Below are positions 6,571-44,570 of a stretch of 64,000 nucleotides of DNA, piece by piece. Position 1 is the stretch's first letter, and each line of letters begins with the position of its first letter. This stretch comes from an uncultured Bryobacterales bacterium. GTDB lineage: Bacteria > Acidobacteriota > Terriglobia > Bryobacterales > UBA6623. The translations under genes were made by a program, and so were the position numbers. Where the stretch lies: positions 150,236-214,235 of the forward strand of contig OY282420.1 in NCBI GenBank assembly GCA_958295955.1, given 5' to 3'. The notes beneath the pieces are model-generated. The model ran no database searches and had not been told where the DNA came from. It saw nothing but the letters and a program-made list of their open reading frames with translations.

Positions 6571-8637
6571 CTACGAACGCGCCGGCTCTTCATCGCGGTC
6601 TATCCGCGTGAACTGCAAAAAACGGTCGGAGCGCCCGACTCGCTCGACGCGCGCCGGGCACGAGAAAATTTGCGCGCCCGCGCCTTCCGCAGATTCCGGC
6701 GGAAGCAGCGCCAAGGCGTCCGCCGTTCCTCCCAAACCCAGGCTCACGACTCCGGGAACCGCCGCCGGATTGACGTATGCCGGCGCCTCAACCGAGCCGG
6801 CAGCGGAGATCACCTTGAGGCGGTCGCCGTTGCGGACGCCGAGCGCGGCCGCGGCGTCGGGGTCGATCTCCAACGGCAGATCGAACATCAGCGACGAAGC
6901 CGGGTCGGGAAGCTGCCTCAACCAGGGCAAATCGGCCCCGCCGCCGTCGCCGTATTGGACGGAGGAGAAGGCTTGAAACGTTAGCGGATACGCGGACGCC
7001 GCCGGCGCGCCGGGAGCCGCGGCAGAGCCCCACGGCCCTTCGGGGTCGGGGGCCGCGGAGATTTCCGCGGAACGCTCTTGCCACCAGCCGCCTTGGCGTT
7101 CGGCGTAGGAGACGAACTCGCGCGTATCGGCAAAGCCGTCCTGCGCAGCGAATATCTCTTCATAGGGAGCCGGCGGAACGGCGGCGGACTTGCCCAGGCG
7201 CTTGGCGATAGCGGACAGCACATCTTCGCTTGCCCGCGTATCGTACAAGGGGCGGACGAACGACGGGCCGCCGGTCAGGGCGTATCCGGGGGCCGTTATG
7301 GGCGAGACAACGCGGCCGGCTTCGAGCGCGTCGTGGTCGGGCAGCAGCACGTCGGCGTGGGCGCTTGGCTGAAAAGCAATCACGGTCGCCGCGTCGAGTA
7401 GAGCCCGCACGCGGAGCGGGACCGCGGCGTCGGCGATGCCGTCGAGAAATACCGCCGTGGGGCGGGCGGCGCCGGTATCGACTGCGGCCGTATCCAGCGG
7501 GCGGGACGGCGCTTTCACGCCGCCCGCGCGGCCCACGTTGCCGAGAATCAGATTGAGCGCGTTGGCAACCGCCGCCGCGGCGACGGAGTTCCTGCGGACG
7601 ATGCTTGCGCCGCCGATGACAACCGGGGCCGCGGCGGAGGCCAGACGCCCGGCGGCTTCTTCGACCCAAGACTGCCGCACGCCGCTTTGCATGCACAGCG
7701 CGGCAATATCCGCCTCGCGCAGCGTCGCCGCGAGAGCCGGGGGCAGGGAAGCGGCGTCCTTCCCGTGCCGCTGGAGGAGCAAGGCGCCGACTGCCAGCGC
7801 AAGCGCATGCTCGCCTCCCGGCGCGGCCGGCAGCCAACGGTCGGCCGCCCAGGCCGTCTGCGAAAACCGCGCCTCGGCATGGAATAACGCACCCCGAATG
7901 CTCTCGCGGCCACGCCGCATGTGACCGAAGCGCCGCGAATAGAACACCGGAGAGACCCAGCCGCCCAGAAAATCCGCGCCGATGCTCAGCACGAAGTCGG
8001 CATCCTGAATCTCGTACAGCGGAATGCCGTTCCAGCCGAAAGCATATTGCGCCGCGGCGCGCTCCACCTCGAAATCGAACGTTCCCGCCGTTCGCGCCGG
8101 AGCGTAACCGCATCCTTCGAGAAAAGACGAGACGGCGGCGCTTCGCGACCCGGACACGGCCGCGGCGAGGTACAAGACCTGTTGCGCAGACGCCGCGCGC
8201 AAAGCTTCCGACGCGCGGTCGAGAGCCGCGTCCCACGAGGCGTCTTCCAGAACGCCGGCAGCGTTGCGGATTTTCGGTCCGCGGGGACGGTCGGGATGGT
8301 AGAGCCGTTGCACCGCCGCCTGCCCGCGGCCGCAAATCCTGCCGCCGCTCACCGGATCGAGCGGGTTTCCTTCGATCTTCTTGACCGCGGCAATCGGCTT
8401 GCGCACTTTTTCGCCGTCGATCTCGAGGATGCGCTCCGCGCGCATGACGCGGACAATGGTTCCGCAGCCGGCAGGGCATTGCCGGCAAACGCTCGGGCGC
8501 CACTCCTCGACGCCGGGAACAATCTGTTCCTCGGGCACGAGCAAGGGAATGATCGCGTCGCCCTCGCGGCCGCAGGCGCCGGCGACCGCGCCTCCCGAGG
8601 CCGTTCCGACCAGCTTGAAAAAGTTCCGCCTGTCCAT
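6571..8637 (-). CDS. actB1: molybdopterin-oxidoreductase-like subunit with TAT signal (ActB1)
   Basis: The internal ATG at 8637 gives the twin-arginine signal MDRRNFFKLVGTASGGAVAGACG. An N-terminal Cys cluster (CRQCPAGCG) follows, then a ~690-aa molybdopterin-family body. The longer track ORF would overlap actA. Confidence 0.85.
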   Translation of the reverse strand: MDRRNFFKLVGTASGGAVAGACGREGDAIIPLLVPEEQIVPGVEEWRPSVCRQCPAGCGTIVRVMRAERILEIDGEKVRKPIAAVKKIEGNPLDPVSGGRICGRGQAAVQRLYHPDRPRGPKIRNAAGVLEDASWDAALDRASEALRAASAQQVLYLAAAVSGSRSAAVSSFLEGCGYAPARTAGTFDFEVERAAAQYAFGWNGIPLYEIQDADFVLSIGADFLGGWVSPVFYSRRFGHMRRGRESIRGALFHAEARFSQTAWAADRWLPAAPGGEHALALAVGALLLQRHGKDAASLPPALAATLREADIAALCMQSGVRQSWVEEAAGRLASAAAPVVIGGASIVRRNSVAAAAVANALNLILGNVGRAGGVKAPSRPLDTAAVDTGAARPTAVFLDGIADAAVPLRVRALLDAATVIAFQPSAHADVLLPDHDALEAGRVVSPITAPGYALTGGPSFVRPLYDTRASEDVLSAIAKRLGKSAAVPPAPYEEIFAAQDGFADTREFVSYAERQGGWWQERSAEISAAPDPEGPWGSAAAPGAPAASAYPLTFQAFSSVQYGDGGGADLPWLRQLPDPASSLMFDLPLEIDPDAAAALGVRNGDRLKVISAAGSVEAPAYVNPAAVPGVVSLGLGGTADALALLPPESAEGAGAQIFSCPARVERVGRSDRFLQFTRIDRDEEPARS

Positions 8638-8666
8638 ACGCTCTTGCAGTGTCTCTTTGCGCCGCG

Positions 8667-9188
8667 CTAGTTGTGGCAGGCCGCGCAATCCTCGCTCGCC
8701 CCTTGCTCGCGATGGCAGTTGAGACAGGTTCCCATTGTATGTTTCACGAGCGGCTGCGCCGTCACCGCCGCGGCCATATCGCCGTGGCAAACCGCGCAGC
8801 GAATCCCGGCGCGGACATGGGAGGCATGCCGAAAGAGCACGTGGCCCGCGCGGTTGAAGCGGTAAATGCGCACCCAGGGCGGCTCACGGCCGGCCGCGGC
8901 GAATGCCGCCAGTTTCCGCACTTCGGGCCGCTCGGTTGCGATCTTTTCGTGGCACAGCATGCATTTGCCGATGCCGGGGATGGTCGCCGCGTCGCCGACA
9001 TCCGCCCGGCTATGGCAATCCACGCACTCCAGATTGAGCGCGGCGTGCTTGTTGTGGGGGAATTCGATCGGCTGCTCGGCGGCGAACACGATCGAAACGG
9101 CGGCGGCGGCCGGCAGTATGCGCCGCCCCCGGCGGAACAGAAGGCGCGCGAGCGATACGCCTCTCCTTTGCCGACCCATTGGGTTCAT
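8667..9188 (-). CDS. actA: pentahaem c-type cytochrome (ActA)
   Basis: Five CxxCH motifs (CVDCH, CMLCH, CAVCH, CLNCH, CAACH) follow an N-terminal membrane anchor (RRILPAAAAVSIVFAA). The start is uncertain: ATG 9188 is chosen, and the track ORF starts at 9263. Confidence 0.8.
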   Translation of the reverse strand: MNPMGRQRRGVSLARLLFRRGRRILPAAAAVSIVFAAEQPIEFPHNKHAALNLECVDCHSRADVGDAATIPGIGKCMLCHEKIATERPEVRKLAAFAAAGREPPWVRIYRFNRAGHVLFRHASHVRAGIRCAVCHGDMAAAVTAQPLVKHTMGTCLNCHREQGASEDCAACHN

Positions 9189-12256: not shown

Positions 12257-13630
12257 TCAAGCGGCTTGGGGCGGCATTTGAAAGTCGTCTCGCGTATCCC
12301 GGAGCCATTGCTTCAAGAGACCGCGGTGGCGTTTCAACTCCGCGTTCCCCGCGTCCGAGAGGGCCAGGTTGCGCACTTCTCCGGGGTCGAGCGCAAGATC
12401 GAAAAACTGTTCCGGGCGGGCTCCTCCGTTGAACGCTGCGTACTTGTAGCGGGCGGTGCGCAGCATGCGCCCGGCGCGGTCGGGAAAACCGAGGTCGGCG
12501 AGCTCGCAGACGACGAATTCGCGGCCGAGCGGCTTGCCCTGGATCGCCGGCCGCAGGCTTACGCCCGCAACGCGGGCCGGCGGCGGCGCCCCGGCGTAGT
12601 CGCAGAGCGTAGGCACGATATCCGCTCCGGACGCGAGGGTCCGGCTATCGACCGCGCCGCGGCGTTCGATTCCCTTCCCGGCAACGATGAGCGGCACTTT
12701 GGCGGTTTCTTCCCAGAATGCGGCCTTTTGCGTCCAGCGGTGCGCGCCCATGCCTTCGCCGTGGTCGGACGTCAGCACGGCAACCGTGTTTTCCATGAGA
12801 CCGCGGAAGCGCAGCGCCGAGAGCACGCGGCCGATTTGCCGGTCGACATCCTCGACCATGCGGTAGTAGTCGTGCAGATAGTGCCGGAAATCGTCGACTT
12901 TCCACTCCTTGGAAATATGCAGTGAATTGGACATGCGATTGTAGTTGGCCTCGCGGTGATAAATCACGTATTCAGGCTCTTGCGGGTCGCGCCAGAAGTT
13001 TCCCGGCGCCGGCGGATAGCGCGCGGTCGTCTCGTAATCGCGGCTTCCTTCGTGGCCGCGGATCCAATGGCAAATATCGTGAGGGTTCATGAAAGAGGCG
13101 ACGAGCAGAAACGGCTCTTGCGGCCCCCGGTGCAGGAATTCGACGCACTTCGTGGCCAGCGGCTCGTCCATGTGCGCTCCGAGCGTATGGCCGCCGACCA
13201 GCGTTTCGAATCCTTCGGGTTCTCCGAAACCTTTGGGCAGGTGCCACTTGCCGGCATAGTACGTGCGGTAACCGTGTTTGCGGAAATGCCGGCCGAGGTT
13301 GGGAATGCCTTCCGCGATCGCTTGGCCGTTCTTTTCGACCCCGGTTTGATGCGGCATGAGGCCGGTCATGATGCTGCTGCGGGCCGGAGAACAGACCGGA
13401 TAGGTGCAGTAGGATTCGGTGAAGCTCACGCCGCCGGCGGCGAGGCTGTCCATGGCCGGGGTTTTCAGATAGGGATTGCCGTTGGCGCCGAGAGCGGCCA
13501 TCGACTGCTGGTCGGTCATGATCAGAACGATGTTGGGTTTGCTTCCCTGCGCCCGAGCGCGAGGAACGGCCGGCAGAGCGGCCGTCGATACGGCTCCGAA
13601 AAATGCGCGGCGCGATACGTTCCGAGGCAT
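12257..13630 (-). CDS. sulfatase (Cys-type, TAT-exported)
   Basis: The internal ATG at 13630 gives the signal MPRNVSRRAFFGAVSTAALPAVPRARA, then KPNIVLIMTDQQ and the CSPARSSIMTG formylglycine motif. Confidence 0.9.
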   Translation of the reverse strand: MPRNVSRRAFFGAVSTAALPAVPRARAQGSKPNIVLIMTDQQSMAALGANGNPYLKTPAMDSLAAGGVSFTESYCTYPVCSPARSSIMTGLMPHQTGVEKNGQAIAEGIPNLGRHFRKHGYRTYYAGKWHLPKGFGEPEGFETLVGGHTLGAHMDEPLATKCVEFLHRGPQEPFLLVASFMNPHDICHWIRGHEGSRDYETTARYPPAPGNFWRDPQEPEYVIYHREANYNRMSNSLHISKEWKVDDFRHYLHDYYRMVEDVDRQIGRVLSALRFRGLMENTVAVLTSDHGEGMGAHRWTQKAAFWEETAKVPLIVAGKGIERRGAVDSRTLASGADIVPTLCDYAGAPPPARVAGVSLRPAIQGKPLGREFVVCELADLGFPDRAGRMLRTARYKYAAFNGGARPEQFFDLALDPGEVRNLALSDAGNAELKRHRGLLKQWLRDTRDDFQMPPQAA

Positions 13631-13833
13631 CGTGACCTTATTGTAAGCAACATTGCAAGCAACGGCCCGGCTGCGGCCGCCGGAGGGCATATCGGCAGAG
13701 CGCCGCCGCGCGGTTATGCTATGCTGGAAGGCAGGCTCGGATAGATAAGAAGCAGTTCCCTGCTCTCGCTTCTTCCTGCCGCAGGGACTTCCGCCGACCG
13801 GATCCCACTCAGATAGATACAGAGACACGGCAA

Positions 13834-29008: not shown

Positions 29009-29084
29009 GCCGGCGTAGCTCAGTTGGTAGAGCATCCGATTTGTAATCGGACGGTCGGGGGTTCGAGTCCTCTCGCCGGCTCCA
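29009..29084 (+). tRNA. tRNA-Thr (anticodon TGT)
   Basis: A 76-nt cloverleaf folded by hand: acceptor GCCGGCG/CGCCGGC, D arm GCTC-AGTTGGTA-GAGC, anticodon arm TCCGA-TTTGTAA-TCGGA, T arm GGGGG-TTCGAGT-CCTCT, with an encoded CCA. Confidence 0.95.
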
Positions 29085-29129
29085 GTTTTCAAGAGGAGAG
29101 AGCGGCCCCGGCGCAGTGGACAAAGCATT

Positions 29130-29204
29130 GCGGGAGTAACTCAATGGTAGAGTCACAGCCTTCCAAGCTGTTGGTTGCGGGTTCGATTCCCGTCTCCCGC
29201 TCCA
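29130..29204 (+). tRNA. tRNA-Gly (anticodon TCC)
   Basis: 75 nt: acceptor GCGGGAG/CTCCCGC, anticodon arm ACAGC-CTTCCAA-GCTGT, T arm GCGGG-TTCGATT-CCCGT, with an encoded CCA. Confidence 0.95.
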
Positions 29205-29229
29205 GGAATCGCCGCTGCGGCGGCTGTGA

Positions 29230-29305
<76 letters not shown>

Positions 29306-38325: not shown

Positions 38326-39177
38326 ATGAGACTCGTCACCTACTCGCATCGAGAGCGTTCGGCGGCCCTGGGCATGGTCGTCGACGGCCGCGTGATCGAC
38401 CTCGCGGACATCGGCTACAACGATATTCTCCGCTTCCTGGAGGAAGGCGGCAAGGCCGTGCGGCGCGCCGAGCGGTTCGCGAAGATCGCCGAGGAAGGAC
38501 CTCGCTTCGAGGATGTCAAGCTGCATGCGCCCGTGCCGCGGCCCGGCAAGTTTATCTGCATCGGGTTGAATTACAAAGACCACGCGGTCGAATCCGGTAT
38601 GGAAATCCCGGAGTTGCCGACCGTTTTCACGAAGTATTCGAACGCGGTGTGCGGCCACGGCGATCCGATCGTCCTTCCCGCTGTCTCGAAAAAGGTCGAT
38701 TACGAGGCGGAGTTGGCGTTCGTGATCGGCCGCCGGGCGAAGAACGTCAAAGCCGCCGACTGGGGAGATTACGTTTTCGGCTATGCCTGCGTCCACGACG
38801 TCAGCGCGCGGGACTATCAACTGGCGACTTCGCAGTGGACCATCGGCAAGACGTTCGATACGTTCGGGCCGATGGGGCCGGCGCTGGTGAGCAAAGACGA
38901 GGTAGCCGATCCGCACAATCTGCGGATCGGCTTCGACCTCAACGGAGAAACGCTGCAAGACTCGAACACCAAGCAGTTCGTCTTCGATATCCCTTATCTC
39001 GTCGCGTACCTTTCGACGGTAATGACTCTCGAACCGGGCGACGTGATCTCGACCGGCACGCCTCCGGGAGTCGGTTTTGCCCGCAAGCCGCCGGTGTTCC
39101 TCAAGCCGGGCGACGAGTGCGTCGTTTGGATCGAGGGCATCGGCGCATTAAGCAATCCCTGTATCGGCGATGACTGA
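38326..39177 (+). CDS. fumarylacetoacetate hydrolase (FAH) family protein
   Basis: 283 aa. PGKFICIGLNYKDHA, VDYEAELAFVIG and FDIPYLVAYLSTVMTLEPGDVISTGTPPGVG motifs. Confidence 0.9.
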   Translation: MRLVTYSHRERSAALGMVVDGRVIDLADIGYNDILRFLEEGGKAVRRAERFAKIAEEGPRFEDVKLHAPVPRPGKFICIGLNYKDHAVESGMEIPELPTVFTKYSNAVCGHGDPIVLPAVSKKVDYEAELAFVIGRRAKNVKAADWGDYVFGYACVHDVSARDYQLATSQWTIGKTFDTFGPMGPALVSKDEVADPHNLRIGFDLNGETLQDSNTKQFVFDIPYLVAYLSTVMTLEPGDVISTGTPPGVGFARKPPVFLKPGDECVVWIEGIGALSNPCIGDD

Positions 39178-39328
39178 CAACCGCATCCAATACGTCAAAT
39201 CGGGCATCACGTTCGGAACCGCCCTGGCGATCGCGATCTCCTGGTCGCAAAACCACTCGATCGTCTGGGCCATCATTCACGGCCTGCTCGGTTGGGCGTA
39301 CGTGATCTACTACGCGCTGTTCTACTGA
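39170..39328 (+). CDS. 52-aa two-helix small membrane protein (hypothetical)
   Basis: Hand translation gives MTDNRIQYVKSGITFGTALAIAISWSQNHSIVWAIIHGLLGWAYVIYYALFY. Its ATG overlaps the FAH stop (ATGACTGA). It is below the ORF-track length cut-off. Confidence 0.45.
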   Translation: MTDNRIQYVKSGITFGTALAIAISWSQNHSIVWAIIHGLLGWAYVIYYALFY

Positions 39329-39424
39329 GCCGCAGGGGGAGCGAAGGAGCGATTCGCCTGGCCTGGAATCAAGAAGCGTCCGAGATCGCTTGACGCAAAT
39401 TTCGGGAGAAAAGCGGACTTGAAA

Positions 39425-40207
39425 ATGCCTATTACGGTTGACCTCTCCGCTTCGCTCGAATACCGGAAGCGTCTTAAGGATTACTGTTCAGCCAATGTTC
39501 TTACACCGGATCTTAAGTTCGTCTGCAAGTACGAAAAGAAGTGCCGTTTTTCGGCGGAAGAACTTGATAATAGTTTCGCCCCCGGCCAACTCAGCTATGT
39601 CGGCGACGGATACGCGGCCGAGGAGAACGGCATCCCGATGCGCATCCTCATCGTCTCCTTACAAGTAGGTACGAACGAGGTTATCTCGATGGAGCGACGC
39701 CGCGAGCAGATACTCGGCCGCATGTCTGGGAAAAGGAATCCCCACATGCGTGGAGTTACGCGCACTCTGCAAGCCCTGTGGAATATCCGGGATAGCAAAG
39801 TTGAGCGTATCGATGACGATCAGCACGTTCTTGAAGCTTACGCGATGGCCAACTCGACTCTGTGCTCGAATCTACCGACCGATGGAAAGTCGCGCAAAGG
39901 CGAACCGACGGATTGCATGTGGCTCAAATGCAGTTCCCATCTCCGTCGAACGGTCGAATTACTGGAGCCGACGATCATCGTAACTCAAGGCCAAAAAGCT
40001 CCCAAGGAATCGATCGAGAAGATTACCGACAAACGAACGCAGATCGCTGGCAGTATCGAGCGTGTCACGGTCGGCAGAGTGGAAGCGATCTGGAGCCGGT
40101 TCGATCATCCGTCGGCTTGGAGATTCAAAAGGAATTACCTTTCAGATGTCGTAGAGCCCACACTGCAGAAGGTCCGCGAACTCGCCCTCTCAGGTGGTTG
40201 CAAATAA
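39425..40207 (+). CDS. divergent uracil-DNA-glycosylase-superfamily protein (family 4/5-like Fe-S type, non-canonical motif A)
   Basis: 260 aa from ATG 39425. SYVGDGY...MRILIVSLQVG sits where UDG motif A (GEAPG) lies. AMANSTLCSNLP-X-DCMWLKCSSHL...PTIIVTQGQKA has C-X16-C spacing like the Fe-S ligands of family 4/5 UDGs. FDHPSAW sits where motif B (HPS) lies. The gene is low-GC with A/T-ending codons. Confidence 0.65.
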   Translation: MPITVDLSASLEYRKRLKDYCSANVLTPDLKFVCKYEKKCRFSAEELDNSFAPGQLSYVGDGYAAEENGIPMRILIVSLQVGTNEVISMERRREQILGRMSGKRNPHMRGVTRTLQALWNIRDSKVERIDDDQHVLEAYAMANSTLCSNLPTDGKSRKGEPTDCMWLKCSSHLRRTVELLEPTIIVTQGQKAPKESIEKITDKRTQIAGSIERVTVGRVEAIWSRFDHPSAWRFKRNYLSDVVEPTLQKVRELALSGGCK

Positions 40208-40559
40208 GAGTTGCAAGTCTCTTTCGAGTGTGAGCCACCGGATGATTCCCGACGTTGCGATCTTGCTATGGGAAGGCGAACGTTTGGCGTCCGTGCTCGT
40301 GTTCGATCCGAAATACAAGCGCGACGGGCAGAAACCGGTCATGGGAGACATTGACAAGATGCATACGTACAGGGACGGCATTCGCGACTCGGATGGAAAG
40401 CGGGTCGTGACATACGCCGCAATCGTCTATCCGGGCGAGAGCGTAGATTATGCCGGCCAAGTGGGAGCGGTTTCCGCCGTACCGGGCCACGCATCGCCCT
40501 CGAATGCCGTTCGCGGCAAGGTCGCGGCTGCGCTTTCGCAGGCGGCTTCGCAGCGGTAG
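40194..40559 (+). CDS. minimal PD-(D/E)xK nuclease ORF, McrC / DUF524-type core (possibly a gene remnant)
   Basis: RMIPDVAILLWEGERLASVLVFDPKYKRDGQKPVMGDIDKMHTYRDGIRDSDGKRVVTYAAIVYPG shows the PD...D-x-K-Y-K...KMHxYRD pattern. The frame is closed upstream by TAG at 40152-40154. Possible starts are GTG 40194 or ATG 40242. It overlaps the UDG-like ORF by 14 nt. Confidence 0.5.
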   Translation: MVANKSCKSLSSVSHRMIPDVAILLWEGERLASVLVFDPKYKRDGQKPVMGDIDKMHTYRDGIRDSDGKRVVTYAAIVYPGESVDYAGQVGAVSAVPGHASPSNAVRGKVAAALSQAASQR

Positions 40560-40583
40560 AATTGACTGCAACCCAAGTAGGCC

Positions 40584-41171
40584 GTGTACCGCTGGATCAA
40601 AAAATTGCACATTTACGCCGGTCTGCTGAGCTTCAGCGGCTTCACGGTCTGGGGCATCGTCGGGATTTGGGCGACCTTTCTGCCGGCTCCCGCCGAGCGG
40701 ATCCGACCGGATCCGCAAATCCGCACGGTCGCCTTCAGCGTGGACGGTTCCGCCACGGACCAACAAATCACCGACGCGATGATCGCCGCGTCCGGCTTGC
40801 CCTTCATCCAACCCGGACGCAAGCCGAACCGCGACCCGCAGGGCCGCCTGCAGGTGCGCTATCTGACGCCCAACGGCACGCGCCGCATCCTGCTGCTCGA
40901 GAAGGAAAACAAAATCCGCATCGAACAGGTTGCGAGCCCGTTTGCGGGATTTTTGAACATCATGCACTTCCAGACGTTCAACCATCACAACCCCGGATGG
41001 GAAGTACGGATGTGGGGCGCTTACAACGAATTCTCGATGTGGGCGGTCATTTTCATGACGTTATCCGGTTTTTATCTGTGGCTGGCGACGCGGCCGCGCA
41101 TGCAATGGGCGTTGTGGACGCTCGGCCTCTCGACTCTTGCCTTCGCCGCCCTCTACGTGAGCTTGAGGTGA
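40584..41171 (+). CDS. PepSY-associated-TM-like membrane protein, paralogue 1
   Basis: 195 aa with a GTG start. MYRWIKKLHIYAGLL (TM1) is followed by a ~90-aa extracytoplasmic segment, then IMHFQ and two C-terminal TM helices with GFYLW. Confidence 0.7.
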   Translation: MYRWIKKLHIYAGLLSFSGFTVWGIVGIWATFLPAPAERIRPDPQIRTVAFSVDGSATDQQITDAMIAASGLPFIQPGRKPNRDPQGRLQVRYLTPNGTRRILLLEKENKIRIEQVASPFAGFLNIMHFQTFNHHNPGWEVRMWGAYNEFSMWAVIFMTLSGFYLWLATRPRMQWALWTLGLSTLAFAALYVSLR

Positions 41172-41175
41172 CGCC

Positions 41176-41757
41176 GTGTATCGCCTGATGCGCAACATTC
41201 ACTTGATTCTCGGGCTGGTCTTCGCGCTCGCTTTGGGCGTCTATCTGTTGAGCTCGGTGCGTCTTGCGCACCGCTCGTGGTTCTCCGCCGCCCCTACGGT
41301 CACCGAACATACGTATCCGGTCGACCCCGAGCGCGCCGCGACCCCGCGGGCCCTGGGGCAGTACTTGATCGAAGAGCACGGGATACGGGGCGAAATTGCC
41401 CGCGTGCAGCCTGCGCAAGACGGAAAGTTCAGCCTGCTGATTCGGCGCCTCGGAACCGGATACCAAGTGCGTTACGACGAAGGAGCTGCGCAGGCCCTCG
41501 TCCGGGAGAGCAAGCAAGCCTTCACCGGCATGTTGCTGAGCATGCACTTCGCGCACGGCTTTTGGCATGAGAACGCGACGATCAACGTGTGGGGCGCCGT
41601 GTTGTTGCTGACTTCGATCGGACTGTTCGCAATAGGCGTCACGGGCATCTATCTGTGGTTCAAGACCTACGACGAGCGCCTGATCGGATCCGTCTTGCTG
41701 GGCGCGGGTCTCGTCTTCGCCTTCGTGTCCCTGTACCTGGTCCGCAGCCAAGGGTAG
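41176..41757 (+). CDS. PepSY-associated-TM-like membrane protein, paralogue 2
   Basis: 193 aa with a GTG start. Same layout as paralogue 1 (MYRLMRNIHLILGLV, SMHFAHG, GIYLW). It lies 4 nt after paralogue 1. Confidence 0.7.
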   Translation: MYRLMRNIHLILGLVFALALGVYLLSSVRLAHRSWFSAAPTVTEHTYPVDPERAATPRALGQYLIEEHGIRGEIARVQPAQDGKFSLLIRRLGTGYQVRYDEGAAQALVRESKQAFTGMLLSMHFAHGFWHENATINVWGAVLLLTSIGLFAIGVTGIYLWFKTYDERLIGSVLLGAGLVFAFVSLYLVRSQG

Positions 41758-41786: not shown

Positions 41787-44570
41787 CTATCGCACGTAGA
41801 TAAATTCGTTCGAGGCCAGCAGCACCCGCGCGAGACTTTGCCAAGCTTCCGACTCATCGAAGTCGTCGAACTTTTCCCTGATGCCGTGCATATAGGTCAG
41901 CGCCCGGTCGCGTTCTGAGCCGTCGGGGAATCGCGACAGCGCCGCCAGATAGAGGCGGTCGAGGCGCTCGTTGTCTTGCGGCTCGTCTTGCAGCAGGCGC
42001 TGCGCCAGAGATCGCGCCTGCTCCGTGAGAAACGGGCTGTTCATCATGAAAAGCGCTTGCGTGGCTACGGTGGTCGCCCCCCTCTTGCCGCTGGGGTTCG
42101 TGGCGTCGCCGAAGTCGAACAGCGTAAAGAGATTCGGCAGGTTCGCCCGGCGCAAAGGCAGATAAACCGAGCGGCGGGTGAAGTCGTCAGGGTTTTTGCT
42201 GATGCGGTCGGGGCTGGTTTCGCCGTCGGTGCCGATGCCCGGGTCGAGCGTTCCGCCCATCATCGGATCGAGATTGCCGCCGACGGCCAGCAAGGCGTCG
42301 CGAATCTCTTCGATCGTCAGGCGGCGGCGCGGGAAGCGCGTCAGCAGGCGGTTTTCGGGGTCGGCTCGGACGCGGTCCGCGTCAAGCGTTCCCGCCATCC
42401 GGTAGGCGCTTGAAAGCATAATCAGGCGGTGCAGATTCTTGATGGACCAGCCGTTTTCGCGCAGATGCCGCGCCAGATAGTCGAGCAGTTCGGGGTGCGT
42501 CGGCTCTTCGCCGAGCTTGCCGAAATTGTTGGGAGTGCGCACCAAGCCCTCGCCGAAGCGCCAGCCCCAGACGCGGTTGGCGATCACGCGCGCGGCGAGC
42601 GGATTGCCCTCGCTGACGATCCACTTGGCCAAGTCGAGGCGGCCGCTCGTCGAGGACAATTCGGCCGGCGCTTCCCCGCCCGTCAAAACGAGCGGATACG
42701 CCTTGGGCACGGAGGCGCCGAGGTTGCGGTGGTCGCCGCGAACGAATATGCGCTGCTCGACTCGCTCGCCCTCGACGACGGCGCAGGCCATCGGAATTTC
42801 CGCGCGCGGGGCCGCCACTTCGAGCTCTTTCTGCCGCGCCAGCAGCGCGGTCAGTCTGAAGCGGTCCTCCGCGTCGAGCGCCGCCATCTGCTCCTCGGCG
42901 GAGCGATGCAGCGGCCCGCCGTCGAGCCAGACCTTATAGAAAAACAGATTGTCTTCCGGGCGGACTACGGGCTTCGGGCCGACCAGCTTGCCCGAACGGG
43001 GATAACGCCTGCGCGCATTGCTCCACCAGCGCTGATTGCGGTCGTGGAACTCCGCGGCCTGCTTGAATTCGATCGCATAGTGTTCGGCGACGGTTGCGCG
43101 GTCTTCACCCGCCCCCCGCCACTTGGCGAGCTCCGCAGCCTGCGGGTCGTCGAGATAGGCGATCCATTTGGCGAGCATTGCCGGCTCGAGGCCGCGCCCG
43201 GCCGCCGTTTGCGCGGCATCCGCGCCTTGCGCATACACTTCGAAGGCGCCGAGCATGTACTCAGCCATGTCGGCATGATATTTGTCGCGGTACTTCTGGG
43301 CGGCCTTGTCGAAATCGAGAATTTTTTTGATCTGCGCATCGACATCCAGGATTTCGTTCCAAGCCTCGATGAACTCCTCATACTTTTCGACCGGCGTCAA
43401 CGGGGTCTCGACGGGACGCCCTTTCGCTCCGTTTTCGTAGCTGTAAGTCGAAGCGAAGATGGAAGCCAGCGAATAGTAATCGCGCTGCAAAATCGGATCG
43501 AACTTGTGATCGTGGCAGCGCGCGCAAGACACCGTAAGCCCAAGAAAAGCCTTGGAAGTGACGTCGATCTGATCGTCGACGACGTCATAGCGTTTCAGCA
43601 CGAGGTCGCGCTGCGCCAAGGCTTTTTTACCCAGAGCGAGAAAGCCCGTGGCGACAATGCCGCGGGAACCGACTCCGGCGGCAGGGTCGGCGGCCAGGAT
43701 GTCGCCCGCCAATTGCTCCTGCACGAACCGGTCGTAGGGCATGTCGTCGTTGAACGCCTGAATCACGTAGTCTCTGTAGCGCCAGGAGTGGGGGTAGCGG
43801 TGATCCTCGTCGCTGCCCGTGGAGTCGGCGTAGCGCGCGACATCCAGCCAGTGACGGCCCCAGCGCTCCCCGTAGCGGGGCGAGCGCAGCAGGCGCTCGA
43901 CGACGTTCTCGAAAGCGTCTTCCGACTCGTCGGCCACAAAATCGCGGATTTCCTCTTCCGTCGGCGGCAGCCCGGTCAGATCGAATGTCGCGCGCCGCAG
44001 CAAAGTCGGCTTGTCGGCCGCCGGCGCGGGGGCCAGACGGTTCGCTTCGAGCTTGGCGAGAATAAAGCGATCGACGGGCGTGCGCACCCAATCCGCCGCC
44101 TCGACCTCGGGCGGCGCCTCGCGCGAAAGCGGGCGAAAAGCCCAGAAATTGCGGTCCTCGGCGGTGATCTTGCCGCCGGAATCGTCCGGCCGAACGGCCG
44201 CGGTCTCTTCAATTCCGGGCCAGGGGGCGCCCTGCGACAGCCACCGGCGGACGGCGGTGATCTGTTCCGCCCCCAAGCGGCCCTGCGGCGGCATCTTGAC
44301 GCGCTGCTCGTAACTCAGCGCCTTCAGCAACAGGCTGCGTTCCGGCTCGCCGGCGGCGCCGAAAAAACCCGCTCCGCGGGCCGCGAGATAGCCTTCGGCG
44401 GTCTTCAGATCCAGTCCGGCGCTCTGTACCTTCTCGTTGTGGCACATCCAGCATTGGCCGGCCAGGATCGGGCGGATCTGCTTTTCGAAAAACTCGAGTG
44501 AGTCGGAGGCGGCGCCGGCCTGCGCCGCAGCCGCAAATGCGGTCAAGAGGAAGATGCCGGCGCGCAACAC
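41787..44570 (-). CDS. PSCyt / DUF1549 / DUF1553 domain protein (Planctomycete-type cytochrome-c-domain giant protein)
   Basis: 927 aa. Signal peptide, then CWMCHNEKVQSAGLDL (a PSCyt-type CxxCH). Further motifs are CARCHDHKFDP (DUF1549 region) and a C-terminal DUF1553-like region ending NEFIYVR. Confidence 0.9.
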   Translation of the reverse strand: MLRAGIFLLTAFAAAAQAGAASDSLEFFEKQIRPILAGQCWMCHNEKVQSAGLDLKTAEGYLAARGAGFFGAAGEPERSLLLKALSYEQRVKMPPQGRLGAEQITAVRRWLSQGAPWPGIEETAAVRPDDSGGKITAEDRNFWAFRPLSREAPPEVEAADWVRTPVDRFILAKLEANRLAPAPAADKPTLLRRATFDLTGLPPTEEEIRDFVADESEDAFENVVERLLRSPRYGERWGRHWLDVARYADSTGSDEDHRYPHSWRYRDYVIQAFNDDMPYDRFVQEQLAGDILAADPAAGVGSRGIVATGFLALGKKALAQRDLVLKRYDVVDDQIDVTSKAFLGLTVSCARCHDHKFDPILQRDYYSLASIFASTYSYENGAKGRPVETPLTPVEKYEEFIEAWNEILDVDAQIKKILDFDKAAQKYRDKYHADMAEYMLGAFEVYAQGADAAQTAAGRGLEPAMLAKWIAYLDDPQAAELAKWRGAGEDRATVAEHYAIEFKQAAEFHDRNQRWWSNARRRYPRSGKLVGPKPVVRPEDNLFFYKVWLDGGPLHRSAEEQMAALDAEDRFRLTALLARQKELEVAAPRAEIPMACAVVEGERVEQRIFVRGDHRNLGASVPKAYPLVLTGGEAPAELSSTSGRLDLAKWIVSEGNPLAARVIANRVWGWRFGEGLVRTPNNFGKLGEEPTHPELLDYLARHLRENGWSIKNLHRLIMLSSAYRMAGTLDADRVRADPENRLLTRFPRRRLTIEEIRDALLAVGGNLDPMMGGTLDPGIGTDGETSPDRISKNPDDFTRRSVYLPLRRANLPNLFTLFDFGDATNPSGKRGATTVATQALFMMNSPFLTEQARSLAQRLLQDEPQDNERLDRLYLAALSRFPDGSERDRALTYMHGIREKFDDFDESEAWQSLARVLLASNEFIYVR

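Follow-up and report, generated by a model that had tools for sequence, protein, structure and literature searches.

Here we describe a gene in a 64,000-nucleotide (nt) stretch of DNA from an uncultured Bryobacterales bacterium (contig OY282420.1, positions 150,236 to 214,235 of the forward strand; this whole stretch is called the window) that encodes a protein with the fold of the uracil-DNA glycosylase (UDG) superfamily and iron-sulfur (Fe-S)-type cysteines. The coding sequence occupies positions 39425 to 40207 of the plus strand and specifies 260 amino acids (aa) plus the stop codon; the list of open reading frames (ORFs), the homologues, an AlphaFold2 (AF2) model, Foldseek matches and substitution rates all support it. 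A sequence-only reading had singled out this ORF as a UDG relative, and we found the frame and all the quoted peptides where it had placed them; its observation proved largely correct and its interpretation partly so, with the corrections given below. A second possible start is the TTG at 39419, yet the ATG is favored because the orthologues begin with MPIT. A putative Shine-Dalgarno-like purine run, GGGAGA, can be read at 39404 to 39409 (+), ending 15 nt ahead of the ATG and 9 nt ahead of the TTG. The region upstream of the gene showed no sigma-70-like promoter, a promoter and terminator scan around it returned nothing exceeding the shuffled expectation, and tRNA and Rfam searches gave no match near the locus.

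The gene lies in a low-GC islet of about 1.2 kb (39329 to 40560), whose GC content of 0.555 contrasts with 0.625 and 0.63 in the flanks and 0.641 in the whole window. The GC content at third codon positions (GC3) is likewise 0.61 in the glycosylase gene versus 0.79 to 0.81 in the neighboring genes, and no meaningful direct or inverted repeats were found to flank the islet. Upstream lie genes for a DUF1015 protein and a fumarylacetoacetate hydrolase (FAH) and a conserved 52-aa ORF; downstream follow a 121-aa ORF, two PepSY_TM-like ORFs and a PSCyt/PSD1 gene. The 121-aa ORF (40194 to 40559, +), which contains the motif VLVFDPKYK, shares 14 nt with the 3' end of the glycosylase gene and is read in a different frame. 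It matches the Pfam family PF04411 (PDDEXK_7) with an E value of 1.6e-10 and 41.7 bits (cut-off 22.1), only over profile positions 74 to 162 of 164, and it looks like the C-terminal half, or 3' remnant, of a restriction-type PD-(D/E)XK nuclease. This remnant is 97% identical in a sister contig (L043) that is itself 98% identical to the window, and it is absent from the orthologous locus L042 (70% identity). Because the nuclease is truncated or lost while the glycosylase stays under selection, the islet looks like a decayed two-gene defense insertion in which the glycosylase alone is still maintained.

The L042 gene is a syntenic orthologue with 70% amino-acid identity, and the order of FAH, 52-aa ORF and glycosylase gene is the same. 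Between the two, the ratio of nonsynonymous to synonymous substitution rates (dN/dS) of the glycosylase gene is 0.38 (bootstrap 95% confidence interval [CI], 0.25 to 0.54), whereas two flanking genes, with a similar dS, give 0.14 (CI, 0.12 to 0.18), a difference of about 2.6-fold. As the ratio is below 1, the substitution pattern indicates that the gene is real and under purifying selection. We therefore hold it extremely unlikely that the gene is a functionless, decaying leftover of a lost defense islet. The truncated nuclease gene next to it, the small and compositionally foreign islet and the raised dN/dS relative to the neighbors would fit such a leftover; against this, the window, L043 and L042 all keep an intact frame, the CI excludes 1, and all family-invariant residues are kept.

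A homologue search with the window protein returned 60 relatives at E ≤ 1e-16, all unnamed or called hypothetical protein, four of them with a precomputed PF03167 match. A family profile built from 37 of the 60 and searched against a library of 50%-identity clusters retrieved 1,269 cluster representatives at E ≤ 1e-3, 683 at E ≤ 1e-10 and 244 at E ≤ 1e-30. Neither Pfam nor NCBIfam holds a model dedicated to this glycosylase family of about 1,270 representatives. Residue conservation is given below over 203 family sequences, and smaller denominators refer to the ungapped members only.

The AF2 model, predicted with the family alignment as input, has a pLDDT of 94 and a pTM of 0.93. When it was compared with the PDB by Foldseek, the top 40 matches all belonged to the UDG superfamily (probability, 0.96 to 1.0). 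The best was the family-4 UDG of Sulfolobus tokodaii (4zbx; E = 3.5e-7, probability 1.0, target-normalized TM score 0.63), followed by SMUG1, Thermus thermophilus (Tth) UDGA, UdgX and TDG. Thus the UDG alpha/beta fold, which the sequence-only reading had proposed checking by structure prediction and Foldseek, was recovered, and superfamily membership is borne out by both the confident model and its closest neighbor. Curated sequence models recognize the protein poorly. It scored 15.3 bits against PF03167 (E = 0.022; C-terminal half only), below the gathering score of 24.3, and failed the NCBIfam family-4 models TIGR00758 and NF040953 (16.9 versus 125.3 bits and 18.5 versus 250 bits, respectively). 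A direct phmmer comparison with 4zbx gave an E value of 0.002, again over the C-terminal half, and the family profile matched 4zbx at 4e-6 and UdgX entries at about 0.01.

The C-terminal half could be aligned to family 4 in some detail. Using a small family-4/UdgX alignment made from PDB sequences as the target, hhalign placed N143 and C147 on the Asn and Cys of the family-4 'itNvvkC' motif and C169 on the fourth Cys; it also paired EPTIIVTQG with 'aPqIIVpLG' and HPS with HPA. The former element, a core strand and turn ending in Q188-G189, lies at 39965 to 39991 (+), with P182 conserved in 198 of 203, Q188 in 188 and G189 in 180. Motif B, H228-P-S, lies at 40106 to 40114 (+), where H228 is kept in 190/191 and P229 in 191/191 members, and aligns with the HPA/HPS motifs of 4zbx, 1ui0 and UdgX. 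The strand and motif B had both been matched to UDGs from the letters alone, and phmmer, the family profile and hhalign now agree on them. The N-terminal half is less certain. The suggested pairing of YVGDGY with 'vfGeG' and of RILIVSLQVG with 'lmIVGEGPG' was reproduced by hhalign and HMMER, but the alignment of this half alone is not significant (E = 0.07 by local hhalign; 1.9 bits by HMMER). In the global hhalign against family 4, this half was misaligned because of an insertion. Support for the pairing comes mainly from topology, because strand 74-78 of the AF2 model leads straight into the motif-A loop.

Among known systems, the family-4 UDGs (UDGa; 4ZBX/4ZBY and T. thermophilus 1UI0) are therefore the closest, being the best match in both sequence and structure and sharing the same alpha/beta fold. 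The likeness includes the Asn-x3-Cys motif, the fourth Cys starting the next helix, the P-x-IIV-x-G strand, HP(S/A), and four cysteines in the same order. The differences are also clear. Family 4 has the motif A GE(A/G)PG, as in the published motif definitions (PMC4787834), where the window protein has SLQVG; its cysteine pairs are C-x2-C and about x15 (C-x14-17-C), compared with C-x5-C and x19-21 in the window family; and the window family carries an insertion of about 25 residues after motif A, as the sequence-only reading had noticed, which is helical in the model. Family 5 (UDGb) was rejected as a home for the protein, since its GLAPA motif is absent and Tth UDGB (2d3y) is outside the profile matches and the top 50 Foldseek matches. 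By its motifs and scores, the window protein is not a canonical family-4 or family-5 enzyme. That it might still be a divergent member of either family with normal uracil specificity seems very unlikely to us: the best matches in sequence and structure are family-4 enzymes, and motif B, N-x3-C and the fourth Cys align, but GE(A/G)PG and GLAPA are both missing, the cysteine spacings are C-x5-C and x21, the long insertion follows motif A, the scores fall far under the curated cut-offs, and the relatives form a group of their own of about 1,270 representatives.

The first two putative Fe-S ligands are C34 and C40 (CKYEKKC; 39524 to 39544, +), present in 197/197 and 196/197 members, respectively. 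Their spacing is C-x5-C rather than C-x2-C, as had been read from the window, and a spacing of five is kept in 183 of 194 sequences belonging to the two motif-A classes described below. In the AF2 model, the pair sits in an N-terminal loop and helix ahead of the first core strand, as in family 4, although the sequence alignment of this pair with family 4 is not significant. For the second pair, the sequence-only reading had proposed C-X16-C, that is, C147 (39863 to 39865) and C164 (39914 to 39916, +). C147 stands, being present in 203/203 members and aligned with the third ligand, but C164 is variable (T in 77, V in 41, A and E in 16 each, and others). The true partner appears to be C169 (39929 to 39931, +), conserved in 199/200 and aligned with the fourth Cys of 4zbx ('ITACSPYL') and of Tth UDGA. 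The pair is then C147-x21-C169; this spacing is x21 in the class of the window protein and x19 in the other. As all four cysteines are invariant and two of them fall on known ligands, a 4Fe-4S site is the natural reading.

Motif A and its surroundings show how the pocket may differ from that of family 4. The motif-A region, S78-L-Q80-V-G82-T-N-E85 (39656 to 39679, +; SLQVG itself at 39656 to 39670), directly follows core strand beta-1 (R73-S78). At its third position, motif A has Asp in GQDPY, Asn in GINPG and Gln in the GEQPG of UdgX, and the corresponding residue of the window protein is Q80. Across the family, this column holds E in 108, Q in 72 and D in 14 of 203 sequences (60% Glu/Asp), G82 is present in 191/203, and the overall pattern is [GSPA]-[MQ]-[EQD]-x-G. 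Hence, the observation that motif A lacks an acidic or Asn residue is literally true of the window protein, while in its relatives the position is mostly Glu or Asp. The further claim that the motif had been replaced does not hold: HMMER pairs the family sequence RiLvvsmqvgdeE with UdgX RIMMIGEQPGDKED, and SLQVGTNE shares Q, G and E with GEQPGDKE. Judged by these alignments, motif A is a degenerate UdgX/family-4 form rather than a replacement.

Position 80 co-varies with positions 64 and 62 in a second loop, which divides the family into two classes. In the E/D class, motif A reads G-[QM]-[ED]-[YT]-G, D64 is found in 109 of 122 members and position 62 is mostly His. The Q class, to which the window protein belongs, has [SP]-M-Q-V-G-D-x-E-x-P, A64, G or A at position 62, and an LPTGGxSRRGxPT loop with an invariant G159; E85 is present in 55 of its 72 members. 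In the window, the second loop corresponds to the GQLSYVGDGY block (39584 to 39613, +), the counterpart of family-4 'vfGeG', which contains G62 and the nearly invariant G60 and Y63; A64 (39614 to 39616, +) adjoins it.

The remaining predicted pocket positions are far more uniform. The insertion after motif A ends in R104-N-P-H107-M-R-G110 (39734 to 39754, +), with R104 in 185, H107 in 200, M108 in 194 and G110 in 199 of 203 sequences. From order and spacing, and not from structural superposition, we infer that this element corresponds to 'RPFVG' of family 4, so that H107 would replace the base-stacking Phe (Phe55 in S. tokodaii UDG). The putative base-reading Asn and the third cysteine lie in A-M-A-N143-S-T-L-C147 (N-x3-C; 39842 to 39865, +), where N143 is conserved in 197/203 (D in 5) and is placed by hhalign; in UDGs, this Asn reads the Watson-Crick face of the base, and the role of N82 in S. 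tokodaii UDG has been described (PMC11078745). Between the third and fourth cysteines lies a basic loop, G154-K-S-R-K-G159-E-P-T162 (39884 to 39910, +), delimited by conservation and HMMER, in which R157 and P161 are found in 62 and 64 of the 72 Q-class members. The near-invariant polar residues also include R73, R92, R104, N105, H134 and Q188, besides H107, N143 and H228; the four cysteines, H107, N143, H228, R73 and R92 are 94 to 100% conserved across the 203 relatives. Since the predicted pocket positions H107, N143 and H228 are nearly invariant and most relatives carry Glu or Asp at position 80, a catalytic enzyme with a retuned pocket is more likely than the dead DNA binder or scaffold.

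UdgX of Mycobacterium smegmatis (6AIL and other entries) shares several features with the Q class. It is likewise an Fe-S relative of the UDGs with a motif-A Gln, and its GEQPGDKED shares Q, G, D and E with the Q-class SMQVGDAEA. The basic loop separating its third and fourth ligands is extended and aligns with GKSRKG of the window; in the HMMER alignment with the UdgX GGKRRI(H109)K loop, the invariant G159 falls at the position of the cross-linking His109 (KRRIH). The UdgX motif-A Glu and Pro are absent from the window protein, the third ligand of UdgX is His where the window has Cys, and the profile E value is only about 0.01. UdgX membership was therefore rejected, given Gly159 at the His109 position and a motif A in which SLQVG shares only Q and G with GEQPG.

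These comparisons bear on whether the Q class could, like UdgX, bind or mark a particular base or an abasic site without excision, and so block replication or recruit a system such as BREX. Consistent with this idea, the Q class has neither the acid at position 80 (Q instead) nor D64 (A instead), nor H62, and its motif A and intercysteine loop align best with UdgX, which binds uracil-DNA without turnover (PMC4787834). However, the cross-linking residue is replaced by G159, and UdgX acquires ordinary excision activity when this His is mutated to Gly or Ser (H109G, H109S; PMC4787834). The residue E85 could supply an acid in most Q-class members, and H107, N143 and H228 remain invariant. The native motif-A residue of UDG families 2 and 3 is Asn and not an acid, so a motif-A Gln is compatible with catalysis. 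We regard the non-excising binder as unlikely.

The other relevant precedents are Brig1, Brig2 and Brig3, UDG-fold glycosylases whose antiviral activity has been shown experimentally (PMC11078745; bioRxiv 10.1101/2025.10.29.685425; bioRxiv 10.64898/2026.02.25.707755). Brig1, an alpha-glucosyl-5-hydroxymethylcytosine DNA glycosylase (PMC11078745), resembles the window family in several ways: it belongs to the UDG superfamily, its best structural neighbor is also the S. tokodaii UDG, it occurs as a single gene in soil bacteria, with Actinomycetota strongly represented, and the two share neighborhoods in Micromonospora BREX-2 islands. It differs in its GLNPG motif A, in NFELYPWHS with Glu at the base-reading position, where the window protein has Asn, and in lacking the cysteine set. 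An hhalign comparison of Brig1 with the family alignment gave a probability of 0.2%, and membership in the Brig1 family was rejected. Brig2 and Brig3 also come from defense islands or integrons. Brig2 targets thymidine hypermodifications, the class of base that Asn143 would suggest for the window protein; it was found in Vibrionaceae integrons, with homologues mostly in Pseudomonadota and Bacillota, and is set apart by its published description (bioRxiv 10.1101/2025.10.29.685425). Brig3 is a 5-hydroxymethylcytosine glycosylase with N50-P51-S52, E55, D127 and N225 and no Fe-S cluster described, and BapA is a glucosyl hydrolase with an ASCH fold (bioRxiv 10.64898/2026.02.25.707755). By these descriptions, identity with Brig3 or BapA was rejected, because N50, E55, D127 and N225 have no counterpart in the window protein and the ASCH fold is a different one; no Brig3 entry was among the top 50 PDB fold matches of the model. 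The literature searched yielded no Fe-S UDG-like defense protein and no new UDG family of this type.

The distribution of the family points to mobility. A scan with one genome per species found 33 loci, in a Bryobacterales metagenome-assembled genome (MAG), in MAGs of Acidimicrobiales and other Actinomycetota, in about 20 Micromonospora species and in Mycolicibacterium llatzerense, and the genomic positions of relatives are unrelated between lineages. One Bryobacterales MAG (OZ251486.1; L001) carries two same-strand paralogues, at 8001 to 8801 and 12815 to 13645, 4 kb apart with a 1,099-aa NHL-repeat gene between them, and at another locus (L039) two paralogues are directly adjacent. On six Rhodococcus megaplasmids, family copies, named hypothetical protein in RefSeq, lie near a restriction endonuclease, integrases and transposases. 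The low GC3, the unrelated positions, the tandem paralogues and the megaplasmid copies together indicate that the window gene is horizontally acquired and that the family is mobile. A phage origin was rejected, as no phage-encoded relatives were found in IMG/VR, in 50,697 phage records or in PHROGs. Fold matches in BFVD were generic family-4-like UDG domains only, many of them fused to phage polymerases.

Relatives sit among defense genes in several lineages, Brig1 homologues included. In Micromonospora, a Brig1 homologue matching over most of its length lies immediately upstream of the family member at 12 loci, with partial matches at three more. In Micromonospora sp. NPDC047527 (L028, 5120 to 7931), this upstream gene shares 42% identity with Brig1 (E = 5e-59) and runs 4 nt into the start of the family member. 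The pair lies between the PglW-like kinase and PglX methylase genes of BREX-2/Pgl, and is followed by a convergent ADP-ribosylglycohydrolase gene; the same BREX-2/ADP-ribosylglycohydrolase neighborhood has been reported for Brig1 homologues, and the gene beside the Micromonospora ones is listed as hypothetical protein in the neighborhood table of that paper (PMC11078745). The operon of two putative glycosylases, a Brig1 homologue and an Fe-S-type UDG-like protein, appears to be new to the literature.

Associations of this kind recur in both classes. Among Q-class members, one in an unrelated MAG (L040/L041) has a Brig1-like gene about 1 kb upstream, together with a transposase gene. Another, which has 45% identity to the window protein and comes from a Logan contig (SRR21120497, 1 to 9472; L049), lies on the same strand as the BREX-1 genes PglX-PglZ-BrxL and 87 nt 3' of them; the 220-aa gene that overlaps it downstream has no Pfam match and is not similar to Brig1. 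Further Q-class neighbors are a TIR protein (L048) and a ResIII helicase with DUF3427/NOV_C proteins (L050). In the E/D class, both members of the Actinomycetes MAG COS1_bin_4 (L019, 3025 to 4125, and L020, 7014 to 8069) have a NucS_C-like PD-(D/E)XK gene of about 360 aa directly downstream, a GmrSD_N gene lies 3.5 kb upstream of the L020 copy, and the M. llatzerense member (L024) neighbors a KAP NTPase. Fusions of family members to a UvrD-type helicase, DUF4268 and DUF4357 were also found. No operon partner is conserved family-wide, and the apparently conserved neighbors in an all-against-all clustering reflect Micromonospora synteny. Small neighbors, including the 220-aa gene of the BREX-linked member, were considered as Brig1-like or shared partners and rejected; none is Brig1-like, and the sole related pair among them is two DUF2283 genes, 72% identical to each other, at L047. 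As a separate observation, an EcsC-family domain is fused N-terminally to, or adjoins, family members in three unrelated contigs (L005, 5128 to 6804; P0062; L050, 8860 to 9591).

Given the links to Brig1 homologues, BREX and other defense genes, with Brig1 to Brig3 as precedent, we propose, with a probability of roughly 0.5, that the protein is a Brig-like base-excision defense glycosylase acting against viruses or plasmids. It would be a stand-alone, horizontally acquired enzyme of the UDG superfamily, probably with a 4Fe-4S cluster, that scans DNA and flips a noncanonical pyrimidine into its pocket. There, the motif-A loop (Q80, with E85 nearby) would surround the base, H107 would stack on it, N143 would read the Watson-Crick face of a uracil- or thymine-type base, and the motif-B His, H228, would stabilize the leaving base, while the basic G-K-S-R-K-G loop and the Fe-S domain may hold the DNA. 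Hydrolysis of the N-glycosidic bond would leave abasic sites in the invading DNA. The sequence-only reading had suggested a non-uracil, possibly hypermodified base, and the genomic links to Brig1 homologues, BREX and other defense genes lend this idea indirect support. At the base-reading position, Glu or Asp is found in Brig1 and Brig3, whose substrates are cytosine derivatives, and Asn in uracil enzymes (PMC11078745; bioRxiv 10.64898/2026.02.25.707755). Because Asn143 is conserved, we predict a uracil- or thymine-type target (U-DNA or 5-substituted uracils) and not a cytosine-derived one; the base would probably be a 5-substituted uracil, a thymidine-type hypermodification or uracil itself. 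An attack on modified DNA by a gene at the 3' end of BREX would have a parallel in BrxU, a type IV enzyme associated with BREX. The window copy would then be the still-selected survivor of a small decayed defense islet, next to its truncated PD-(D/E)XK neighbor.

Several points weigh against this proposal. To our knowledge, no activity, substrate or phage phenotype is on record for any family member. PADLOC-DB 2.0 gave no match at E ≤ 10 for the glycosylase or the downstream ORF (this library dates from 2023 and predates Brig1), and PHROGs gave none for the glycosylase. The defense association is qualitative, being stated without a background rate of defense genes near random genes, and only housekeeping contexts surround the Bryobacterales loci (metabolic genes) and the dnaJ-X-clpB loci of two Actinomycetota MAGs. 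The locus of the window gene has not changed since a split at dS ~0.5, an unusual stability for a defense gene. The Q class has lost two acids, with Gln in place of the motif-A Glu and Ala in place of the co-varying D64; its chemistry may therefore differ from that of the Micromonospora members linked to Brig1 homologues, with which identity is only about 30%. Finally, the 4Fe-4S cluster is a probable feature, predicted from conservation and from the alignment of two of the four cysteines.

Some of the same points would suit a host enzyme of auxiliary base-excision repair that, like families 4, 5 and 6, clears deaminated or oxidized bases such as uracil, hypoxanthine, xanthine and 5-hydroxymethyluracil from cellular DNA. 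The nearest solved structures are repair UDGs, the uracil-reading Asn and the motif-B His are conserved, the flanks are of a housekeeping kind in the window, in Bryobacterales and in the dnaJ-clpB contexts, and the orthologue occupies the same locus in a genome diverged by dS ~0.5. Repair UDG families are usually single-copy and vertically stable, though, and this one is patchily distributed, foreign in composition (GC3 of 0.61 versus about 0.8 around it) and present in tandem paralogues. Some copies are plasmid-borne or adjoin Brig1 homologues, BREX and nucleases, the window gene evolves at about 2.6 times the rate of the adjacent genes, and its protein widely fails the family-4 hidden Markov model cut-offs given above. 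Host repair is the less probable reading in our view, a possible but rather doubtful one.

In its boldest form, the proposal of a defense glycosylase would make this the first Fe-S antiviral base-excision family, a regular partner of Brig1 homologues and of BREX with two active-site types (E/D80 with D64 and H62, and Q80 with A64 and E85), of which the Q type would not excise at all but recognize a hypermodified pyrimidine and block or flag the invading DNA, for example by handing modified phage DNA to BREX. This is a speculative extension, to which we give little credence. We know of no established effector step of BREX itself.

Base excision has been recognized only recently as a bacterial antiviral strategy, with Brig1 in 2024 and then Brig2, Brig3 and the Dag enzymes in 2025-26, and with each new antiviral glycosylase another phage DNA modification has emerged as a target. 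The present family is an unnamed, probably Fe-S-bearing group of the UDG superfamily and a credible new candidate for base-excision defense: it is large (about 1,270 clusters at 50% identity), has no name in Pfam, NCBIfam or RefSeq, and in several lineages is physically linked to Brig1 homologues and to BREX. If the defense function is true, the Brig concept would extend to Fe-S relatives of the UDGs, a new target base, predicted to be of the uracil or thymine type, would be probable, and the unannotated gene beside the Micromonospora Brig1 homologues would be accounted for. If the protein is instead a repair enzyme, it would become the seventh or eighth family of UDGs, one whose motif A is unusual. 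The pair of co-varying active-site types forms a natural experiment on how a UDG-fold pocket is retuned.

A few other features of the window were recorded. A tRNA cluster, Thr(TGT)-Gly(TCC)-Thr(GGT), lies at 29009 to 29305 (+) and has no relation to the glycosylase finding. The 52-aa hydrophobic ORF upstream (39170 to 39328, +) overlaps the FAH stop by 8 nt and is 85% identical in L042, with a dN/dS of 0.24; it is probably a real small membrane protein. Downstream, the adjacent ORFs at 40584 to 41171 and 41176 to 41757 (+) match the PepSY_TM profile at positions 2 to 164 and 175 to 294, and the pair looks like a single gene broken in two; the split is also present in L043, and L042 has one 176-aa gene at that place. 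The PSCyt/PSD1 gene is intact in the window (41787 to 44570, minus strand, 927 aa) and is represented in L043 (10363 to 13145) by two genes of 761 and 120 aa, which is a frameshift or an assembly difference between the two contigs.

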